This document shows positions 12,817 through 51,268 of a stretch of 64,000 bases of DNA, one piece after another (the stretch's first letter is position 1; the number at the start of each line of letters is the position of its first letter). Both the position numbers and the translations under genes were made by a program. The notes beneath the pieces were generated by a model, which saw only the letters and a list, made by a program, of their open reading frames with translations, did no database searches and was not told where the DNA came from. This stretch comes from Clostridia bacterium (GTDB lineage: Bacteria; Bacillota; Clostridia; TANB77; CAG-465), in assembly GCA_900772475.1 (NCBI GenBank), contig CAAHEI010000105.1:13393-77392 (forward strand), written 5' to 3'.

Positions 12817-12903
12817 GTGGGCATGGCGGAATCGGCAGACGCACAGGACTTAAAATCCTGAGAGAAAAATCTCGTGAGGGTTCAAATCCCTCTGCCCGCA
12901 CCA
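12817..12903 (+). tRNA. tRNA-Leu (anticodon UAA), CCA encoded
   Basis: Hand-folded cloverleaf. Acceptor GTGGGCA/TGCCCGC (one G-U pair), 3-bp D stem, anticodon stem CAGGA/TCCTG with loop CTTAAAA, 15-nt variable arm (class II), T arm GAGGG-TTCAAAT-CCCTC, then A-CCA. Confidence 0.9.
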
Positions 12904-13247: not shown

Positions 13248-13386
13248 GTGAACAGTTGATATATTGTTTGCGACTTCCTCATTGTGAAAGCAATCGACCC
13301 TAAATGTATTTTTTTTAACGGCTTAGTTTGTTAGTATAATTAACATAAGAGCATATTCATTTTTTCTTACAAGGGCTGCCCTTTTT
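13248..13386 (+). ncRNA. candidate small RNA (about 140 nt) between a promoter and a short terminator
   Basis: It is bounded by the promoter at 13213 and the hairpin AAGGG-CTG-CCCTT plus TTTT at 13371-13386. It has no RBS or ORF. Evidence is positional only. Confidence 0.3.
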
Positions 13387-13442
13387 GTATTGCTTTCAAA
13401 TTATTTTAAAGTCTGGTCTTTATGATCGGGCTTTATTTTTGT

Positions 13443-13471
13443 TTGACTTTTCGCACAGTTTGTGGTATAAT
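13443..13471 (+). promoter_or_regulatory. consensus sigma70 promoter (TTGACT-17-TATAAT) for the phage RNA polymerase gene
   Basis: TTGACT at 13443-13448, a 17-nt spacer ending TTTGTGG, then TATAAT at 13466-13471, 37 nt upstream of ATG 13508. Confidence 0.7.
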
Positions 13472-13507
13472 ATAAATATATTTTATAGAAAAGGTGTAGT
13501 TTCCCTG

Positions 13508-25989: not shown

Positions 25990-26007
25990 TAGGAGGAGTT
26001 TGATATT

Positions 26008-27135
26008 ATGGCAAAAAAAATAATGAAAGAATTTTTATTCGCAGAAAATGATATGAACGATGTTGAAACAATCGTTAAAAATTTTGCCGAAGTTGGTGCA
26101 GCCGCAACATATAGAGATTTCGGTTCACACGGCATTATTGAAGAAGTAAAATTAGATAATTACAAAGAAAGAGAACAAAAAGTTAAAGAAGCAACTGTTG
26201 CTTTTGCTGCTGCTAGAGCAGGTATTCGTTGCCCTAAAACTGCAACTGAAGTTGCTTATGCTTTAGACAATACAACTTTTAGAGATATTTTAAATACTAT
26301 TATGGTTAGAACACTTGGAACTATGATGGTAACTTATGAATCACCACAACTTAATGCTCTTGTAGAAGTACAACCAGTTGAAGTTGGAAATTCATTCACT
26401 TATGAAATTGATACAAAAGCATTACCTGTTGCACAAAGAGCAACTTATGGCTCAAATGTAACAATGGTTCCATCTTATGCTATTGGTTCTAAAACTTTAA
26501 AACCAGTACCATATTCAATTGGTATTTCACTTGACTATATTAGAATAATCGCTAATGGTTATGATTGGGGTAAAGCAATTGCTAGAGTTTATGCTGGTAT
26601 GTTGTTTGCACAATATAATGAAGTTGTTGGCGTATTATTTAATATGAATGCATTAAATGGTACTCCATTCTACAATGCTACTTTCTCTGCTGCTACTTAT
26701 GTACAACTTGCAGAAGATGTTAAAATGTTGAATGGTGGAGCAGGTGTAACTGCTTATGGTACTCTTGTTGCTTGGCAAACAATTTCTGCTCTTGCTACAC
26801 AAGGTGGTTTCACAACTAAAGATGAATATATTAAAAATGCATTCTTACAAAAAATTTATGGTGTAGATTCTATGGTACTAGACCAATTCACTAACTATGC
26901 TGCTCCATTTACAACTGCAAATGCTGCAAGTTTAAGAGCAATTCCTAATAACTTAATCGTATTGCTTTCTTCAACTGACAAACCAGTTAAACTTGCTCGT
27001 GAAAACTATATTAGAGTAATTGAAACACCAGCAAACGATAATACTTTGAATAGAAATGAATACTCATTCTTCCAAGCATTTGATGCTGATATTGCAACTG
27101 CATCACAATATGGTTTACAAAATACTCAAGCGTAA
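26008..27135 (+). CDS. major capsid protein
   Basis: 375 aa with a GGAGGAG RBS, positioned after the scaffold and decoration genes and followed by the strongest terminator in the window. Confidence 0.7.
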   Translation: MAKKIMKEFLFAENDMNDVETIVKNFAEVGAAATYRDFGSHGIIEEVKLDNYKEREQKVKEATVAFAAARAGIRCPKTATEVAYALDNTTFRDILNTIMVRTLGTMMVTYESPQLNALVEVQPVEVGNSFTYEIDTKALPVAQRATYGSNVTMVPSYAIGSKTLKPVPYSIGISLDYIRIIANGYDWGKAIARVYAGMLFAQYNEVVGVLFNMNALNGTPFYNATFSAATYVQLAEDVKMLNGGAGVTAYGTLVAWQTISALATQGGFTTKDEYIKNAFLQKIYGVDSMVLDQFTNYAAPFTTANAASLRAIPNNLIVLLSSTDKPVKLARENYIRVIETPANDNTLNRNEYSFFQAFDADIATASQYGLQNTQA

Positions 27136-27178
27136 TTGCTTATAGGCCACAAATTAAGTGGTAAATTTCATTAAATTT

Positions 27179-27217
27179 GGGCATAGACTTTAAATGTGGT
27201 TTATGCCCATTTTTTTG
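27179..27217 (+). terminator. rho-independent terminator after the capsid gene
   Basis: GGGCATAGAC ... GTTTATGCCC is a stem of about 10 bp followed by ATTTTTTT. Confidence 0.75.
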
Positions 27218-27269
27218 AAACAACATTTTATAGAAAAAATTTTTATTATTGAAAGGAGAAAATTCCATT

Positions 27270-28022
27270 ATGGCAACACAAATTAAAAAAAATAATGTAG
27301 AAAAAACTGCTGATGTAAAAAATGAGGAAAAAGTAGAAAAAGTAGTTACTGAAACTAATTTGGCTACTGAAAATGAAATAAAACAACTTCGTGAAGAAAA
27401 CGAACAAAAAACAAATGCAATAAACGATTTATCAAAACAAATCGCAACAATGCAAGAGTTAGTTAATAAGTTAATGGCAAGCCAACTTGATAATCCAAAG
27501 AAAGAAGAAGTTGATAAAGGTGATGTTCTTATAGGGTGTCGTTTTATCAATGGTGCTGCTATGGCAACAAATGATAATAGATTGGTTTGTAAATTCGATT
27601 GTGATGAAGAAAAATATGTTCCAGTCGAAGATTTTAAAAGGTATCTTAATGAGGCAAATAGAAATTTGAGAAATCTTTTTGAGATTGATGGTTTCTATTT
27701 TGTTGACCCTAAAGATTATGATAAATTTAAGATTAGAAAAAGACTAGATTTATCACACGAAAAAATTAAAGAAATTGTTTTCACAAAATCATTGACAGAT
27801 ATGATTGATAAAGTTAATTTATTGACAAACAATAAAAATGATTTTAATGCTTTGCATTTATTCCAATACGAAATTTGTAAAATGCTTGTGGACCCAAGTA
27901 GCCCACTTGCTGGTTGGAATTATGAGAACAGGATACATCTCGAAGATTACATCGGTATTAAATTTGATGAATTATTGGCACGACTTAGTGCGAGAAGTTT
28001 GGCTGCAAAAAACAGAAAATAA
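27270..28022 (+). CDS. hypothetical head-associated protein (N-terminal coiled coil)
   Basis: ORF track, with the start moved to ATG 27270 (AAAGGAG 9 nt upstream). Confidence 0.6.
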   Translation: MATQIKKNNVEKTADVKNEEKVEKVVTETNLATENEIKQLREENEQKTNAINDLSKQIATMQELVNKLMASQLDNPKKEEVDKGDVLIGCRFINGAAMATNDNRLVCKFDCDEEKYVPVEDFKRYLNEANRNLRNLFEIDGFYFVDPKDYDKFKIRKRLDLSHEKIKEIVFTKSLTDMIDKVNLLTNNKNDFNALHLFQYEICKMLVDPSSPLAGWNYENRIHLEDYIGIKFDELLARLSARSLAAKNRK

Positions 28023-28037
28023 TAAAAGGAGACCCCT

Positions 28038-28484
28038 ATGGCAACTACATTTAGTGATATTATAGATATTGCTTTGATAACGATACAAGATTACAAACTA
28101 AACAACTTGTATCAAACAAATCCAGCAGATTTTCAGACTATAACAAATGCCTTTTTGCTACGTGGGCTTCCACAATTTACAAATTGTAAAACACCTTTAA
28201 CTTATGATATGACTACTCAATCTTTCACTAATACATTAACACCTTTGGAAATAAGTATTTTGGCTGATTTATGGGTATATGAATGGTTTGAATGGCACGT
28301 TCAAAATGTAACTCAATTTGAGAACAAAATGACACCGTCAGATTTTAAACATTACTCAGAAGCAGAAAACTTAAAACAAAAGTCGGAATATTTGGATAGA
28401 TTAAGAGAAAAGCATAGCCAGAAGATGGTTGATTATGGCTTGCTTAATGTTGATTGGGCAACTTGGGGAAATGGAAATTTTTAA
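28038..28484 (+). CDS. putative head-tail connector/adaptor protein
   Basis: Positional call only. AAAGGAG RBS. Confidence 0.45.
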   Translation: MATTFSDIIDIALITIQDYKLNNLYQTNPADFQTITNAFLLRGLPQFTNCKTPLTYDMTTQSFTNTLTPLEISILADLWVYEWFEWHVQNVTQFENKMTPSDFKHYSEAENLKQKSEYLDRLREKHSQKMVDYGLLNVDWATWGNGNF

Positions 28485-28491
28485 ACATAGG

Positions 28492-28796
28492 ACCTTTAGA
28501 AAATATCTAAAAACATAGAAAAATATATGATAAAGTAGATGCTTGGCCTTTATTACATAGATTTTCTAACAGGTTTCAAGCCTTAGTGATTGTCAATATT
28601 GAAAAATATTTGGCTGATATGAACTGCATTGAGAGAAAAAGTTAAAGACATACCTTTAGATGTTATCTCCAGTCTGAAGCTCTATGAACTCCAACCAAGA
28701 AACATATCTAACATCTTGATATGATAACAGGGAAAAGTAAGAACTCCTCTTGATTTGGGCAAGGAGAAAATACTCCGTAAAAGGAAGGTGACAGAG
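28492..28796 (+). ncRNA. putative omega-RNA (HEARO-type) of IscB
   Basis: A 300-nt ORF-free leader sits directly 5' of iscB on the same strand, where IscB omega-RNAs lie. Stems seen include AGATGTTA (28660s) with TAACATCT (28710s), 8 bp, and CTCCT/AGGAG and GGAG/CTCC around the RBS. The boundaries are not determined. Confidence 0.45.
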
Positions 28797-30062
28797 ATGT
28801 TGCAAAAACAAGAATATGCGTTAGTATTGGATAGTGATGGGAATAAACTTGCTCCAACTAAAGTACAGAAGGCTTGGTTCTTAATAAGAAAGAAACGAGC
28901 AAAACTAATTCAAAGGTATCCTATGGTTATTCAATTAACCAAAAAAGTGAATATGATAAAAGATGGCACAACTCTAGAATGTGGAATTGATGATGGTTCT
29001 AAATATGTTGGCATTGCATTAGTGCAAAAGTGTAAAACTAAAAACAAAGTTTTCTTCAAAGGGACTATTGAATTAAGACAAGATGTTAAAAAGAAAATGG
29101 ATATCCGTAGAGAATATCGTAGATATAGAAGGAGTCATAAACATTATAGACCAGCAAGATTTAATAATCGTGTTTCTATGATAAAGAAAGGACTGCCCCC
29201 ACCAAGTATTAAACAAAAGAAAGACTCAATAATTAGAGTTGTAAATAGTTTAAACAAATTTGTCAATATTGATAATATCCATTTAGAAGATGTAAAAATT
29301 AATATTAGAGAAATGGTTGAAGGCAAGAAACTTTATGGTGATGAATATAATATTCCAAATAAAGAAAATGCCAATCTAAGAATAGCGACTTTGATTAGAG
29401 ATAATTATACTTGTCAAGAGTGTAGCAAAAAAACAAATTTGGAAGTTCACCATATAATTCCTAGAAGTAAAAATGGTTCTAATAGTATTTATAATACAAT
29501 AACATTATGTGCGGATTGTCATCAAAAGACAGAAGGTAAAGAATTTTTATTCGCTGGTAAATATTTAAGGCAAATAGGAAGTGATTTTCTTAAAGGTCTT
29601 AATTATGCACAACACGTAATGCAAGGCAAGAAGTATTTAAGGGCTAGATTGAGAGAAATTGTAAACTTGGACACAACCGATGGTTTAACAACTTCAGAAA
29701 GAAGGGAAATGTGGGGTATAGACAAATCTCATAGTAATGATGCAGTTTGCATCACAGGATTAAAACCTAATGACATAGAAATTACTGAATATACTATAAT
29801 TCCACAAAGAAGAAAGAGTAAAGCTAAAAGTAAAGGGTTAAATGGGTTTAAACATCGTGATATAGTTACATATCATCACACAAATAACATAGATTATATT
29901 GGTAACATCACCGCAATTTATACTGATGGAACAAATACATTGAATGTAAAAACCAAAGAAAAACATTTTAAAAGAGTTTCTTACAAAAGATGTAAATTAT
30001 TTTATAGGTTTGATAAAATTTGGTGGTTACAAGATAAATTTATACAATTTTATATAATTTAG
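28797..30062 (+). CDS. iscB: IscB RNA-guided nuclease (PLMP - RuvC-I - Arg-rich bridge helix - RuvC-II - HNH - RuvC-III - C-terminal TAM-interaction-like domain)
   Basis: N-terminal ALVLDSDGNKLAPT...YPMVIQL (PLMP-like). CGIDDGSKYVGIAL (RuvC-I Asp). REYRRYRRSHKHYRPARFNNR (bridge helix). IHLEDVKINI (RuvC-II Glu). CQECSKKTNLEVHHIIPRSKNGSNSIYNTITLCADCHQKT (HNH). KSHSNDAVCI (RuvC-III His/Asp). GFKHRDIV... C-terminal domain. The start is taken at ATG 28797 (AGGAAGGTG RBS). Confidence 0.85.
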   Translation: MLQKQEYALVLDSDGNKLAPTKVQKAWFLIRKKRAKLIQRYPMVIQLTKKVNMIKDGTTLECGIDDGSKYVGIALVQKCKTKNKVFFKGTIELRQDVKKKMDIRREYRRYRRSHKHYRPARFNNRVSMIKKGLPPPSIKQKKDSIIRVVNSLNKFVNIDNIHLEDVKINIREMVEGKKLYGDEYNIPNKENANLRIATLIRDNYTCQECSKKTNLEVHHIIPRSKNGSNSIYNTITLCADCHQKTEGKEFLFAGKYLRQIGSDFLKGLNYAQHVMQGKKYLRARLREIVNLDTTDGLTTSERREMWGIDKSHSNDAVCITGLKPNDIEITEYTIIPQRRKSKAKSKGLNGFKHRDIVTYHHTNNIDYIGNITAIYTDGTNTLNVKTKEKHFKRVSYKRCKLFYRFDKIWWLQDKFIQFYII

Positions 30063-30076
30063 ATAGGGGGGATATT

Positions 30077-31180
30077 ATGGCATTAGAATACTATAAGGCA
30101 TATTTAAACTCTATGGCCCAAGACCCAGTAACTTATTGGCGAGAATTAAGGCAAGAAGCAACTAATGATGTTTGGTTAGATACTTCAACTGTAGAAACAG
30201 TTCAAGGCCAAACAAGTTTAGGTGCTATATCTTATGGACCAGAAAGTGTACAAGTCAACTCTGTGATAGACCCTAAGACAGGGAAACCATTTGGTGATGA
30301 TTATAGAAAAATAATTTATAAAAATTTATTTGATAATAAATTGCCACCAAGTATTATTCCGGCATCTCAATTTTTAGTTAATTCTGTTGGCGGTATTGAA
30401 TTGTATAGATTTGAAACTATTGATGGAAAAGATTTCTTAGTTAGAAATAGCAACAGATTTATGGGTAAATACTATAAATTTGATGGCATAACTTGGCTTA
30501 CAATAAATACAAATACTATCATTGGTTCTAGTGCTAGTGCAATTTTGCAGAGATGTAACAATTGGCTTAAGTGGTATGACAAAAATAATGTTTTACATCA
30601 ATGGGAATGCGTGTTTGAAAGAAGTTTATCTTCTACTCGATTTGATTATGGTAGCGAAGGTGTCGCAGAAGTTGGCTCTGATACTCTTATTAGAGTTCAA
30701 CGAAATGCCGAAACCGAATTAATACCTTTCAACCAAAGATTTATTTTTGATGGGCATGCTTTTCAAGTTAAACAAATAAATAATCACATAAGTGATACTT
30801 ATATGGAATTGTACCTATTTGAAACTCAAATTCAGTCTAATGATGATTTGGTAAATAATATTGCAAATAGTGATGGAGAAATAAAACCCACAACAAATGA
30901 AACATTAATAACACCGGATGTAAACAAAATTTTACAAGGCGAAACTCAAAAGTTTTCGGTATATAATTATATTAATGGAGTTCCTAGTCCTTCGACTTAT
31001 AAAGTTGATGTGTTAGGGGGCTCTGCTAATGTAAATTATACATTAACAATAATTGACGGAAATAATTTCTCTATAACAAATATTTTGCAAAGCAATTCAC
31101 CATTAACGATTGTATGTACAAATACTCAAGATTCTAGCGATATTGTATCTATAAATATTGTATTAGGGGGATTGTGGTAA
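30077..31180 (+). CDS. structural protein with C-terminal Ig-like domain
   Basis: ORF track. GGGGGGA RBS. The C-terminal roughly 90 aa look like a beta-rich Ig-like domain (ETQKFSVYNY...YTLTIIDGNNFSITN). Confidence 0.6.
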   Translation: MALEYYKAYLNSMAQDPVTYWRELRQEATNDVWLDTSTVETVQGQTSLGAISYGPESVQVNSVIDPKTGKPFGDDYRKIIYKNLFDNKLPPSIIPASQFLVNSVGGIELYRFETIDGKDFLVRNSNRFMGKYYKFDGITWLTINTNTIIGSSASAILQRCNNWLKWYDKNNVLHQWECVFERSLSSTRFDYGSEGVAEVGSDTLIRVQRNAETELIPFNQRFIFDGHAFQVKQINNHISDTYMELYLFETQIQSNDDLVNNIANSDGEIKPTTNETLITPDVNKILQGETQKFSVYNYINGVPSPSTYKVDVLGGSANVNYTLTIIDGNNFSITNILQSNSPLTIVCTNTQDSSDIVSINIVLGGLW

Positions 31181-31764
31181 TGGAAATTTGCGAGAATGAA
31201 TATAATAAATTTCAACAAGTAGATGTTGCCACAAAAACTATAGTAGATTATTTATTATTAAATAATGAAGATTTGTGGAAACTTTTGTATTATATAAAAC
31301 CAAACGAATTGCCTTTGTCTAGCCCAAATTTGACTAGAGCACAAAAGGCAGCAATGATTTGTACAGACCCATATGCGACAAATGAAAATGTTGATAAAAA
31401 CATTCTATTTCAAACTGTAACTGACGAAGCATTTAGCACTGCTATTCCTCAAATAAGAATAGAAATTGGTGACATTGTTCCATTGGATAGGGTTCGTGCT
31501 TATATGTATATAGATTTTCAAATAGTTGTTCCAAATAAACAAGACATTTTTACGGCTCCATATAATAGTGTTGCTCGTAGAAGTGATGCATTATTTAGGG
31601 AACTTGCAAAAACACTTAATGGGATTGATATACCTAATAGTGGATTTTATTCCAAAATGTTTTTAGATCGGTCTAGTAATGCTGGAAGAAAAACTGGTGC
31701 ATATAGGCAACAAATGAATCAAAACTTTACTGGCCGTTGGGTAACATTTTCAGTTCTTTTGTAA
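31180..31764 (+). CDS. hypothetical structural protein
   Basis: ORF track. ATG 31180 overlaps the upstream stop (TAATG). Confidence 0.6.
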   Translation: MEICENEYNKFQQVDVATKTIVDYLLLNNEDLWKLLYYIKPNELPLSSPNLTRAQKAAMICTDPYATNENVDKNILFQTVTDEAFSTAIPQIRIEIGDIVPLDRVRAYMYIDFQIVVPNKQDIFTAPYNSVARRSDALFRELAKTLNGIDIPNSGFYSKMFLDRSSNAGRKTGAYRQQMNQNFTGRWVTFSVLL

Positions 31765-31776
31765 TAGAGGTATACA

Positions 31777-32604
31777 ATGGACCTTAATAATTATGATAAA
31801 ATTGTAGAATTATACCATGCTATGAACGATAATAAAGAACTTTTAAAAGTTTTCTATGCTAATGATTATCCAGTGCCTTATAAAACTTTAACATTGTATC
31901 CTGTCCAAGTAGATTTGTATTATTATTTTCATTTATTAGTTCAATGCTTATTATTGCCACATAAAACGAGTGGTGATATAAAGGCAATTTCTTTGCCATA
32001 TTTAAAATATTTATTTTATTTGGCAACAGATAAAGAGCAACCTGAAGCAATTGCGTCTCTTGGAGAACTTCTTTTAATTGTTTTGAGAAAGCCAAAAACT
32101 TATAAAGATGAAAATGGGAATGAAAAATTTTCTATTTCATTTGAGTTGGATAAAGGAATTATTGATATTGAGGGTAAGAAATTTGATAGCAAAGATTTTG
32201 ATATTATAAAAAAAATAATATTAGAACAAAATGCAATTGAAGCACCCGATGAGACAATTCCACCAGAGTTGCTTAAAGCATATAAAGAACTTGAGGAATA
32301 CAAATTAAAACAAAGCAAAGTTAAAATGTGTTCATTTGAGGACCAAATAAATGTCATAGTCGCTCGTTCTTCTTATCGTAGAGACGAAGTTATGAAAATG
32401 ACAATTCGTTCGTTTTCAAGGCTTTTAGATCGTGTCGATAAAATAATGTCTTATGAAATAAATTCTTTATTGAAACCATATATGGATAAAAAGGACCAAG
32501 AAAATGTTGGTCACTATATGGCTGATACTGAAAAGTCATTAAAAGAAAGATGTGATGAAGCATTTATTGATATGGATTCATTGCATAAAAAAGTTGAAGG
32601 TTAA
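31777..32604 (+). CDS. hypothetical structural protein
   Basis: ORF track. Part of the structural operon. Confidence 0.6.
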   Translation: MDLNNYDKIVELYHAMNDNKELLKVFYANDYPVPYKTLTLYPVQVDLYYYFHLLVQCLLLPHKTSGDIKAISLPYLKYLFYLATDKEQPEAIASLGELLLIVLRKPKTYKDENGNEKFSISFELDKGIIDIEGKKFDSKDFDIIKKIILEQNAIEAPDETIPPELLKAYKELEEYKLKQSKVKMCSFEDQINVIVARSSYRRDEVMKMTIRSFSRLLDRVDKIMSYEINSLLKPYMDKKDQENVGHYMADTEKSLKERCDEAFIDMDSLHKKVEG

Positions 32605-48834: not shown

Positions 48835-50169
48835 GCAGGTGTTTATAATCACGAAACGCATGAACTCATAGCAACTTGGGCAGATTTAGTGACAGATGAT
48901 GTAAATGACACTACAAAACCATTTTATCAAAGTATAAGTGGTGGGTTAATAACTATAATGCCAATGGATGGCTACACTGATACAACTTATGATGGCTGCG
49001 ACTTGTATTTAGATGATTATGTGCAAAGTCTTTATTATGCATCGGGTGGCATAACTTTTAAATTTCCATTTAATGTTGCAAATGTTATTTTGTCAAATGG
49101 GCTTAAACATAATGCCCCAGTCCTTGATTTTAATGATACAGAGCAAATTACGACAACTTACAATAATGCCCAATACATTGGTAGCGATTCAAATCCATAT
49201 TTGATGCTATATAAAATACCAGATAATGTAACTTCATTGGAAATAAATGAGAAGACAAAAATTATAAATCAATTCTATACAGATGGTTTTACTGGCGCTC
49301 AATTAAGTTCAATCACTATACCAAATTCAATTCAAGATATACCTTCACAACTTACAATGATGCCGCTTTTGAAAAATGAAACTAATTTACACGGAAATGC
49401 TTACTATGCAGGAAATTCGGAAAATCCATACATTGTGCTTATGGAAGCAAAAGATACAACTATAACTGAATGTGAAATAAATCCAAATACAAAATTTATC
49501 GGAGTATATGCATTTGATGGATGCACTTCACTAACAAATATAAATTTGCCTAATTCTGTAACTAATATAGAAGAAATTGCATTTAGAAAGTGTGGGTTAA
49601 CCTCCATAAATATACCAAATAGTGTAGTAAAAATTGATGTACAAGCATTTGGACAAACTCAATTAACAACAGTTACATTACCAAATAGTATAGAATTTTT
49701 AGGACGTGGAGTATTTAATATATGCAAAAGTTTAACAACTGTAAATATACCTGAAAAAATAACATTTATTCCAGATAATTTTTGTTATTTTTGTAATTCT
49801 TTGACAAATGTTACTACTCATGATAATATAGAAATAATAGGAAGAACTGCATTTTATAAGGCAATATTTACAAGTTTTGATTTTGGTAAAAAACTCAAGT
49901 GCATTAAAAGAAGTGCTTTCTCAAATTGTGCGAACTTGAATAATGTGGTTTTGCCAAATACAATTAAAAGAATTGAAACGTCTGCTTTCGCTAGTTGTGC
50001 TTCATTGACAAAATTGACTATTCTTGCAACAACGCCACCAAATCTTGTAAATATAAATGCTTTTCCAACAAATCTTGCAACAATTTATGTACCAAAAGGT
50101 AGTTTGGATTCGTACAAAACAGCGACAAACTGGGCTTCATTCGCAGATAAATTTGTTGAGTTGAGTTAA
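48832..50169 (+). CDS. BspA-type leucine-rich-repeat (LRR_5) receptor-binding domain ORF, probably expressed as a +1 frameshift extension of the fibre
   Basis: LRR_5 repeats (IPNSVTNIEEIAFRKCGLTSINIPNSVVKIDVQAFGQTQLTTVTLPNSIEFLGRGVFNICKSLTTVNIP...). The frame is open upstream to 48814 and has no ATG or TTG before the SD-less GTG 48889 chosen by the ORF track. Confidence 0.6.
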   Translation, partial: EAGVYNHETHELIATWADLVTDDVNDTTKPFYQSISGGLITIMPMDGYTDTTYDGCDLYLDDYVQSLYYASGGITFKFPFNVANVILSNGLKHNAPVLDFNDTEQITTTYNNAQYIGSDSNPYLMLYKIPDNVTSLEINEKTKIINQFYTDGFTGAQLSSITIPNSIQDIPSQLTMMPLLKNETNLHGNAYYAGNSENPYIVLMEAKDTTITECEINPNTKFIGVYAFDGCTSLTNINLPNSVTNIEEIAFRKCGLTSINIPNSVVKIDVQAFGQTQLTTVTLPNSIEFLGRGVFNICKSLTTVNIPEKITFIPDNFCYFCNSLTNVTTHDNIEIIGRTAFYKAIFTSFDFGKKLKCIKRSAFSNCANLNNVVLPNTIKRIETSAFASCASLTKLTILATTPPNLVNINAFPTNLATIYVPKGSLDSYKTATNWASFADKFVELS

Positions 50170-50179
50170 AGGGGGAAAT

Positions 50180-51268
50180 ATGGGAATAATACTTAGAAAT
50201 AATAAAACTATAACACCATCAATAGTTATTGAAAAAATTGAAAAATCAGACGAATGGAAGCCAGATGCTGATATGGTTTGGGCTAAAAGTGTTTGTGAAA
50301 ATGATGTGCAAGAAGGATTTCAATGTAAAGTCTTGCAAATGATAAATAATTATTATACTTATACCGATATTGTTGTACCAAATAATGGTGCAGTAAAAAC
50401 AAGTGATGGTGGATACTATACAGAAAATGTAACTCACACTTGGGATGACACAAATGCCAAGCAAAGTGAGACAGGAGATTATAAACTTAGATGGTTGATT
50501 TATTACGATAATGATAATGTTAGTGCAGTTACAAATATATTAGATAATGCTATGTATACTTGTCTGAGTAATAAAAAATTTGATAATCTTACTTTTAGAA
50601 GTAAACAATGTTTGCAATATTTCGATTTAATAAATAATGCAAAATTTTTAGGCAGTAGCATAGGCGCTTGTTTTAGTGGTTGCTTTTTGCTTCAATCTAT
50701 ACCATTATTTGATATAAGTGGTATAACGGATATGAGTAGTATGTTTTTTAACTGTTATTCATTACAATCTATACCACCATTTGATATAAGCAGTATAACG
50801 GATATTAGCAATGCCTTTAATGGTTGTGCTGTACTAAAATCTATTCCATTATTAGATAATGGTAACCTTATCAATCTTGGCAATACTTTTAATGGTTGTA
50901 GTACACTCCAGTTTATACCGTTTTCTGATACTAATAAGACAACTCGTTTGGCTAATGCATTTGCTGGTTGTTTTGAAATTAAAGCACTTAATCTAAATTT
51001 GATAAATATAACATCTGGTTGGATGCAGGGTCAAATAATGAATAGATGTATAAATCTTGAATTCCTAACTCTCACAAATGTTAAAGCCAATATAAACATC
51101 TCATACTCAACTAAATACAGTAGAGAAACATTGCTTGGCATAATAAACAACTTAGTTGACTTAACTGGACAAACTGCACAAATACTTGCTATGGGTGCCA
51201 TAAACTTGGCAAAATTGACCGACGAAGATAAGCAAATAGCTGTCAACAAAAACTGGTCGTTAAACTAA
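50180..51268 (+). CDS. DUF285/BspA-family LRR surface-repeat protein (second receptor-binding candidate)
   Basis: It carries repeats of the form F.GC..LQSIP.FDIS.ITD....F.GC. AAGGGGGA RBS. Confidence 0.65.
   Translation: MGIILRNNKTITPSIVIEKIEKSDEWKPDADMVWAKSVCENDVQEGFQCKVLQMINNYYTYTDIVVPNNGAVKTSDGGYYTENVTHTWDDTNAKQSETGDYKLRWLIYYDNDNVSAVTNILDNAMYTCLSNKKFDNLTFRSKQCLQYFDLINNAKFLGSSIGACFSGCFLLQSIPLFDISGITDMSSMFFNCYSLQSIPPFDISSITDISNAFNGCAVLKSIPLLDNGNLINLGNTFNGCSTLQFIPFSDTNKTTRLANAFAGCFEIKALNLNLINITSGWMQGQIMNRCINLEFLTLTNVKANINISYSTKYSRETLLGIINNLVDLTGQTAQILAMGAINLAKLTDEDKQIAVNKNWSLN

Follow-up and report, generated by a model that had tools for sequence, protein, structure and literature searches.

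We analyzed a 64,000-nt stretch of phage DNA (contig CAAHEI010000105.1 of assembly GCA_900772475.1, Clostridia bacterium), which is referred to below as the window. A segment at positions 28492-30067 lies in the 15-nt spacer between two late structural genes, in the same direction as both and within the Shine–Dalgarno sequence of the downstream one. It consists of a non-coding leader and an open reading frame (ORF) for the RNA-guided nuclease IscB (Table 1). The segment is of a known kind, an IscB/omega-RNA (OMEGA) element, in a phage-adapted form. Judging from the comparisons described below, this TnpA-less element probably acts as an RNA-guided homing element of phages, and its lineage was found only in phage and metagenomic contigs.

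The ORF matched the Pfam families RRXRR (PF14239, 5e-46, residues 9–185), which is the N-terminal PLMP/RRXRR domain, and HNH (4.4e-12, residues 206–245). Its best match in the PDB was HfmIscB (9k2z, E 3e-125, residues 6–412, ~55% identity), followed by TbaIscB and OgeuIscB (7xht/7utn, about 2e-15). In OgeuIscB (7xht), the GIDPG, LE, and H..DA motifs are the counterparts of residues D65, E164, H312, and D315, which are aligned with HfmIscB too; the HNH residues CQEC, HH218–219, N233, and CADCH were all present in the PDB alignments. The series of motifs from a PLMP-like N-terminus to RuvC-III, which a preliminary description of this DNA had read from the letters, was recovered at the same positions with no catalytic residue substituted. 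By these alignments, the ORF is an intact IscB with all RuvC and HNH catalytic residues. An alternative in-frame TTG start is present at 28755; all homologs start at the position of the ATG.

Close relatives of the phage were collected by a search with the downstream protein; megablast of positions 26000-32600 against the phage collection gave no match, and the relatives came through proteins. In these relatives, the homolog of the upstream gene directly adjoins the downstream gene: the two genes are 14–21 nt apart in nine contigs from different samples (L168-L171, L205-L209), and their homologs are 13–16 nt apart in two distant relatives from IMG/VR (L001, L002). Identity to the window reaches 97% on both sides of the segment in one of the nine, L168, and blastn aligned its positions 3–367 with 28127-28491 and 363–1799 with 30063-31500. 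The junction of L168 reads ...GGAAATTTTTAAACATAGGGGGATATTATGGC. In the window, the left border of the segment is ...TTTTTAAACATAGG/ACCTTTAG... and the right border ...AATTTAGATAGG/GGGGATATTATGGC. These junctions give the insertion a length of 1576 nt (28492-30067 or any rotation over ATAGG). The pentamer ATAGG, which the preliminary description had noticed at both borders, is present at 28487-28491 and 30063-30067, and the insertion junction lies there. The empty site predicted from it was right in placing the insertion at ATAGG and wrong in detail: the real site, TAAACATAGGGGGATATTATG, has five G instead of six and a spacer of 15 nt instead of 20. The comparison with related phages that had been proposed thus gave nine contigs without the element, and by this comparison the segment 28492-30067 is a true insertion.

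The leader (28485-28796) contained no plus-strand ORF of 40 aa or longer, except for the TTG extension of IscB itself, which bears out the ORF-free leader described previously on the same strand. A permissive Rfam scan placed HEARO (RF02033) at 28572-28773 on the plus strand with 24.8 bits and an E value of 0.018. The covariance-model search suggested in the preliminary description therefore gave a match in the right place and on the right strand, with a score far under the gathering score. Weak matches to HEARO (23.8–35.4 bits) were also found directly upstream of the IscB gene and on the same strand in four of six homologous viral contigs, and HEARO is annotated at the equivalent place in one Staphylococcus phage record. 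Meers et al. counted HEARO matches in this position as omega RNAs from 15 bits upward (PMC10055086). Since the HEARO match is weak, the evidence for the RNA comes from comparative analysis and not from Rfam.

The core of the RNA was aligned from the 315 nt upstream of the start codon at 21 non-redundant loci and folded with RNAalifold. Thirty-six pairs were predicted, 27 of them with compensatory changes; 96.4% of the cells were paired, compared with 80.5% in column shuffles (none of 500 reached the observed value) and 29–36% with slid partners. The 5′ domain, aligned separately from 16 loci, gave 26 pairs (20 compensatory), with 88.8% of the cells paired versus 71.7% in shuffled columns and 38–48% with slid partners. 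The window sequence forms all 36 core pairs and 23 of the 26 pairs of the 5′ domain (59 of 62 in total), and the 3′ tail of the scaffold extends into the ribosome-binding site of IscB. The omega-RNA-like leader proposed before, which spans 305 nt ahead of the ORF, is thus structured and conserved, with strong covariation across 21 loci. On the basis of this folding, we treat it as a divergent omega RNA, which has the HEARO/omega core in common and lies outside HEARO by the Rfam cut-off. A protein-only HNH homing endonuclease was also considered for this locus and rejected because a RuvC domain and a conserved RNA are present.

IscB systems take their guide from the sequence that adjoins the scaffold on its 5′ side and lies outside the element, and transcription from the upstream gene is needed for it (PMC10055086). 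The outer helix P1 of the 5′ domain begins at 28490-28494, which is the insertion boundary, so the guide would have to come from about 28475-28491. The origin assigned to it in the preliminary description, the 3′ end of the upstream gene, is upheld for this reason. The presumed template comprises the last codons and the stop codon of that gene plus ACATAGG. It has an exact match in the empty sites of L168 and L171 and two mismatches in those of L169 and L170. No terminator between the upstream gene and IscB was found in the scan.

Table 1. Features of the IscB locus, with positions in the window.
Feature	Position	Strand	Evidence or remark
Upstream virion-module gene	28038..28484	+	148 aa, PHROG 3853; end lies in presumed guide template
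Tract 97-100% identical to L212, L213, L214	28100..33650		Identity declines after ~33650
Presumed guide template, ...AATTTTTAAACATAGG	28475..28491	+	~16-17 nt; presumed from its place directly 5′ of scaffold
Left ATAGG	28487..28491		Junction position ambiguous over five bases
Putative omega-RNA scaffold	28490..28790	+	HEARO match, RNAalifold, pair counts
Scaffold outer helix P1	28490-28504 with 28561-28575	+	RNAalifold, pair counts
Inserted element	28492..30067	+	1576 nt, or any rotation over ATAGG; start ACCTTTAG, end ...TTTAGATAGG
Scaffold inner hairpin	28524-28535 with 28548-28559	+	RNAalifold, pair counts
Scaffold core	28580-28760	+	Closed by GCC/GGC, 28580-82 with 28758-60
IscB ORF	28797..30062	+	421 aa; Pfam, PDB alignments, motifs, dN/dS
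KLAPT motif	Residues 17-21	+	Counterpart of PLMP; reads KLAP
RuvC-I, GIDDGSKYVG	28983..29012, residues 63-72	+	Catalytic D65
Arg-rich bridge helix, RREYRRYRRSHKHYRPARFNNR	29106..29171, residues 104-125	+	RFNNR motif at its end
RuvC-II, HLEDV	29280..29294, residues 162-166	+	Catalytic E164
HNH domain, CQEC...HHIIP...NTITLCADCH	29412..29522, residues 206-242	+	Pfam HNH
RuvC-III, SHSNDA	29727..29744, residues 311-316	+	H312, D315
Right ATAGG	30063..30067		Last bases of element; 5′ half of Shine–Dalgarno of downstream gene
GGGGATATT	30068..30076	+	Remaining Shine–Dalgarno and spacer of downstream gene
Downstream virion-module gene	30077..31180	+	367 aa, YomX_C family

An exact-sequence look-up of the window IscB returned no record; the nearest protein cluster, P0110, is slightly different. 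This nearly identical IscB occupies the same site in three contigs from other samples (L212-L214). Between the same conserved genes, the element is thus present in the window and in five contigs of P0110 (the three named were inspected and confirmed as filled) and absent from the nine empty contigs. In L212-L214, the element is 99.8% identical to that of the window at the nucleotide level. To the right of it, 97–98% identity continues for ~3.5 kb; to the left of ~28100-28160, identity drops to 58–76%, and this boundary is ~350 nt from the element. The same element therefore lies in otherwise divergent backgrounds with a recombination boundary ~350 nt away, and the highly similar tract is suggestive of a co-conversion tract.

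The next cluster, P0111, contains an 89%-identical IscB, also of 421 aa, encoded between two tail-region genes of the 86-kb contig L215. Outside the element, L215 has no nucleotide similarity to the window: it is an unrelated phage, and the site is a different one. The ends of its element are the same as in the window (...GTGAGG/ACCTTTAGAAAATATC... and ...TTTTAAATAGG/AGGAAGAATG). Such occupation of other sites in unrelated phages had not been foreseen in the preliminary description. The ratio of non-synonymous to synonymous substitution rates (dN/dS) between the IscB genes of the window and L215 was 0.08 (dS 0.60), and the non-coding leader was 96% identical, far above the conservation of synonymous sites. 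Protein and RNA are therefore both under selection, and by this estimate the nuclease is under purifying selection.

Two peculiarities of the reading frame were observed among the homologs. The usual IscB stop codon TAA is CAA in the sub-lineage formed by the window, P0110, and P0111 (window 30021-30062); the window ORF runs on for ~10 codons (..LQDKFIQFYII) through the 3′ tail of the element, and its TAG stop precedes the last five bases. In four metagenomic homologs (L091:2489, L092:2489, L099:2483, L103:2483), ATA replaces ATG at the IscB start downstream of the usual ribosome-binding site, which may reflect a rare start codon keeping expression low or a knocked-out start.

Staphylococcus phages of the family Herelleviridae encode IscB relatives (46–49% amino acid identity) at three further sites with verified empty sites. 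Seven of the 57 Silviavirus records were filled. The Baoshanvirus phages Golestan101 and JDF86 have 92%-identical elements at two different loci; Golestan101 was verified as empty at the JDF86 locus, the check being made in this direction only. In the Silviavirus phages VL10 and MRSA28 (L084:2690-4290, L086; empty allele L085:780-830), the element lies within codons 7–8 of a ‘resolvase’ gene of the PDDEXK_15 family. To the left of the element, where the guide would be read, the gene’s original 23 nt stay behind as an orphan, and the 3′ tail of the element provides a Shine–Dalgarno sequence, an ATG, and a recoded copy of codons 2–7 (AGT to TCG, AAA to AAG). From its sequence, this arrangement looks like the target recoding found beside homing endonuclease genes. 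Staphylococcus phages with IscB relatives also carry TnpB and RAGATH-18 RNA; HEARO and RAGATH-18 are simply listed as non-coding RNAs in a Silviavirus genome paper. The ‘transposase’ annotated 1.4 kb downstream of the Golestan101 IscB element (L083:5652-6761) is a TnpB (OrfB_IS605 and Cas12f1-like TNB), so Golestan101 has two different OMEGA nucleases and no visible TnpA.

The junctions were inspected by eye at ~20 loci. Most of them have a left flank ending in (A)AGG; typical elements begin with ACT(T/A)A or ACCTTT and finish with ...TTTTA(A/G)AAAGG or ...ATAGG, and the right flank continues with AGG, AGA, or GGA, the start codon following 6–14 nt further on. According to this pattern, nearly all of the elements lie inside the downstream Shine–Dalgarno sequence, the 5′ half of which is restored by the end of the element itself. 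Where the flanks could be read, the ORFs on either side of the element are mostly co-oriented. In the five junction sets whose boundary was verified or aligned, the target is followed on its 3′ side by GGGATA, GGATAC, AGAAAA, GTGATG, or AGGAAG, and the element starts with ACCTTT, ACTTAC, or TCTTTT. A short purine-rich target-adjacent motif (TAM; approximately N-G-R) would separate empty from filled alleles, a pattern confounded by the composition of the ribosome-binding site. In the empty allele of the window site, positions 30068-30076 are located directly 3′ of the target and would be the candidate TAM side.

Of the five junction sets, four (window, L215, Golestan, JDF86) have a left flank ending in GG, and the fifth, Silviavirus, has a single G there. 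A terminal GG of the element is common to all five sets and to ~15 further loci. The junction is ambiguous over ATAGG in the window, AAGG in Golestan, and AGGA in JDF86. These motifs could be a pair of TAM and transposon-encoded motif (TEM), a crossover core, or microhomology. Neither terminal inverted repeats nor long direct repeats were found at the element ends in a repeat search. The 5′ end of the element is a long helix, which doubles as P1 of the omega RNA; the 3′ end of the window copy gave no convincing hairpin, and one is present in some homologs. In a metagenomic homolog, the left flank of the element (L091:2150-2200, ..ATATTTAGAAAGG) resembles its right end (L091:3736-3800, ..ATATTTTAGAAAGG) over 10–13 nt. 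This is longer than the usual ambiguity of 4–5 nt and could be a remnant end or a longer duplication.

From these data, the following mechanism can be proposed. Read-through of the late operon would yield an RNA with the end of the upstream gene, which holds the guide (~28475-28491), in its 5′ part and with the omega scaffold in the next ~300 nt. IscB would be translated from the same transcript and bind the guide/scaffold RNA. In a co-infecting related phage without the element, the complex would recognize ...TTTTTAAACATAGG followed by GGGATATT on the TAM side and cut with RuvC and HNH. Repair of the break by recombination with the filled genome would copy the element and some of its flank into the rival (homing), or the rival would be destroyed. 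The filled allele would be immune because the scaffold (ACCTTT...), instead of the TAM, adjoins its target. The last bases of the element (..ATAGG) would rebuild the ribosome-binding site, leaving the downstream gene expressed.

The inferred homing has population-level support in the filled and empty alleles, the exact match of the guide, the 99.8%-identical element in divergent phages, and the dN/dS of 0.08. Several observations weigh on the other side. The HEARO score of the leader (24.8 bits) is below the Rfam gathering score of 83. The promoter/terminator scan near the element did not exceed chance (25 versus 21.4 expected), and we therefore do not claim a promoter of its own for the element. 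The junctions are not perfectly clean: the G run has one extra G in the window relative to L168, and the right junction of JDF86 has three extra bases, AGG (L210:3030-3065 compared with the empty phiSA_BS1, L211:795-815). Ordinary mosaicism of phage genomes could account for the identity boundary near the element. The restriction to phages is taken from a pattern-based scan of one genome per prokaryotic species, which reaches only close relatives; it found no close relative in cellular genomes, and its best match was a protein with 30% identity from an archaeal metagenome-assembled genome. RNA expression and processing, guide length, TAM, cleavage, and repair-mediated copying are all deduced from sequence. 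Finally, homing cannot explain the copies at unrelated sites in L215, JDF86, and Silviavirus.

Because of these copies, some transposition step without a visible transposase is needed. No match to Y1 (PF01797) or to serine transposase/resolvase families was found among the 35 window ORFs scanned, and none lies between the flanking genes; the absence of TnpA noted in the preliminary description holds for these ORFs. GG at both junctions is the rule for IS607 elements, whose TnpB nucleases have the TAMs AGGAG or GAGGG (PMC13565253). IscB was not found with IS607 transposases or serine recombinases (PMC10055086). The choice of new sites by likeness to the old guide was unsupported: the left flank of the window scored 11 against the left flank of L215, seventh among the 87 gene-junction flanks in the window. 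A wider proposal, which we hold tentatively and with somewhat less than even confidence, is that viruses may harbour natural RNA-guided homing endonucleases, which would in effect be gene drives, in the form of a large phage-restricted lineage of IscB. The guide of such elements would come from the end of the upstream gene and the target would be the Shine–Dalgarno spacer of element-free relatives, into which they would be copied by recombination, their own end rebuilding the ribosome-binding site. They would reach new sites without a Y1 transposase, possibly by a GG-core (IS607-like) recombinase or break-induced capture, and this would be a mobility route so far undescribed for IscB.

Transposon RNA-guided nucleases restore the transposon on the sister chromosome after excision, and such restorative homing has reportedly been shown for Geobacillus elements. 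The segment might likewise be an ordinary non-autonomous IS200/IS605-type element moved in trans by a Y1 TnpA of the host or another element, with IscB only restoring the donor site after excision and not acting between phages. This explanation, which we regard as unlikely, would account for the exact ends conserved at different sites and for the transposition step that the unrelated-site copies need; the 4–5 nt junction motif could be its TAM/TEM pair, and ~98.5% of iscB genes have no tnpA nearby (PMC10055086). However, the scanned ORFs of the window include no Y1 transposase, and the relatives come from Herelleviridae, which are strictly lytic, and from viral contigs instead of cellular genomes. 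The junction motif is identical on both sides (ATAGG/ATAGG), and were it TAM and TEM at once, the filled allele would target itself. The 99.8%-identical element in divergent phage backgrounds also points to transfer from phage to phage.

Less probable still is a domesticated weapon, that is, an IscB kept mainly to destroy co-infecting element-free relatives by interference competition, with the benefit going to the phage genome and the copying of the element being incidental. The exact match of the guide to rival alleles and the strong purifying selection agree with such a role, and competition between co-infecting phages through intron endonucleases (cited in PMC13565253) is a precedent. Its molecular mechanism is identical to that of homing, and the sequence does not tell the two outcomes apart. 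The many sites, the many phage lineages, and the end that restores the ribosome-binding site look like adaptations of a mobile element and not of one host phage. An inactive relic, inserted once and now passive, is very improbable: the usual stop codon is lost, the ORF is 10 codons longer, and no promoter of its own was detected in the scan near the element, but the ORF is intact with all catalytic residues, dN/dS is 0.08, the leader is far better conserved than synonymous sites, none of the 36 core RNA pairs is lost, and the C-terminal extension also occurs in the 89%-identical copy and is therefore a stable feature.

The element was compared with known systems. As in the OMEGA IscB systems (OgeuIscB and the IscB of G. 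stearothermophilus ISGst5), the domain order is PLMP/RRXRR, RuvC-I, bridge helix, RuvC-II, HNH, RuvC-III, and C-terminal domain; a structured RNA lies upstream on the same strand, the guide would come from the outside flank, the upstream gene is co-oriented, and tnpA is usually not nearby. In contrast to them, the window protein is only ~25–30% identical to OgeuIscB, its RNA has an elaborated 5′ domain and reaches 24.8 bits with the HEARO model, and its sub-lineage was found wholly in phage and viral contigs. The insertion inside a Shine–Dalgarno sequence that the element end rebuilds is a further difference, and the likely target would be a rival phage genome instead of the sister chromosome after excision. 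HfmIscB (PDB 9k2z) is the closest solved relative and belongs to the same sub-family; its deposited chain has ~130 extra N-terminal residues and reads EVAHI where the window protein reads EVHHI. The RNA and HEARO (RF02033) occupy the same place and strand with respect to the nuclease gene, and both have the closing GCC/GGC helix and the conserved ACC..GAUG..CAGUC..GCUCU hairpin; where the model has its first stem, the window RNA has a longer 5′ domain of two hairpins.

The free-standing homing endonucleases of phages (T4 SegF/SegB, Mob) and the marker-exclusion intron endonucleases are likewise present or absent between two conserved genes, with the empty allele of a co-infecting phage as the inferred target and a sharp identity boundary beside the gene; a recoded target copy adjoins the element in Silviavirus, as it does in those systems. 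Unlike them, the window element would recognize its target by a guide RNA copied from the flank and not by protein, would tell self from non-self by its own presence, which displaces the TAM, and not by substitutions, and has exact ends at unrelated sites. IS607-family TnpB elements also have GG at both junctions, GG at the element end, and AGGAG-like sites (PMC13565253); the window element differs in having no serine recombinase and an IscB as its nuclease, and the likeness is one of junction sequences only.

A protein database search gave 1,728 clusters at E ≤ 1e-50, almost all of them unnamed metagenomic proteins. Our literature search found no paper describing phage IscB homing and none on HfmIscB, and a 2026 review treats the homing of OMEGA elements into co-infecting phages (‘non-restorative homing’) as a theoretical possibility only (PMC13565253). 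If the proposed homing is true, it would add an RNA-programmed class to phage homing endonucleases. It would help to explain the mosaic boundaries of phage genomes and would pose the question of how an element lacking TnpA comes to retarget to new Shine–Dalgarno sites. Compact IscB variants related to HfmIscB would also become available, with natural guide/target pairs for reading the TAM. Since there are natural filled/empty pairs, exact guide–target matches, and identical elements in divergent phages, the proposal is directly testable with cultured Staphylococcus phages.

The neighbouring genes belong to the Pfam families YonB, YomX_C, YomW, YomV, YomU_Tube, and YonD_N. A 623-aa protein encoded at 13385-15256 (+) matched Pfam RdRP (5e-11) and in this respect resembles YonO, the single-subunit RNA polymerase of SPbeta-type phages. 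On account of the Yom/Yon families and this polymerase, the phage was placed among SPbeta-like phages. A tRNA gene (12817-12900, +; Rfam tRNA, 59 bits) was the only Rfam family found at gathering score in the window. At 56943-57557 (−), a weak GIY-YIG match (E 5e-4, under the Pfam cut-off) overlaps the end of a PD-(D/E)XK nuclease gene (56174-56971, −); this region may be a second, protein-guided homing endonuclease gene. Adjacent ORFs at 48889-51268 (+) contain BspA-type leucine-rich repeats (LRR_5, 8e-46) and DUF285 and are likely host-recognition proteins of the tail module.

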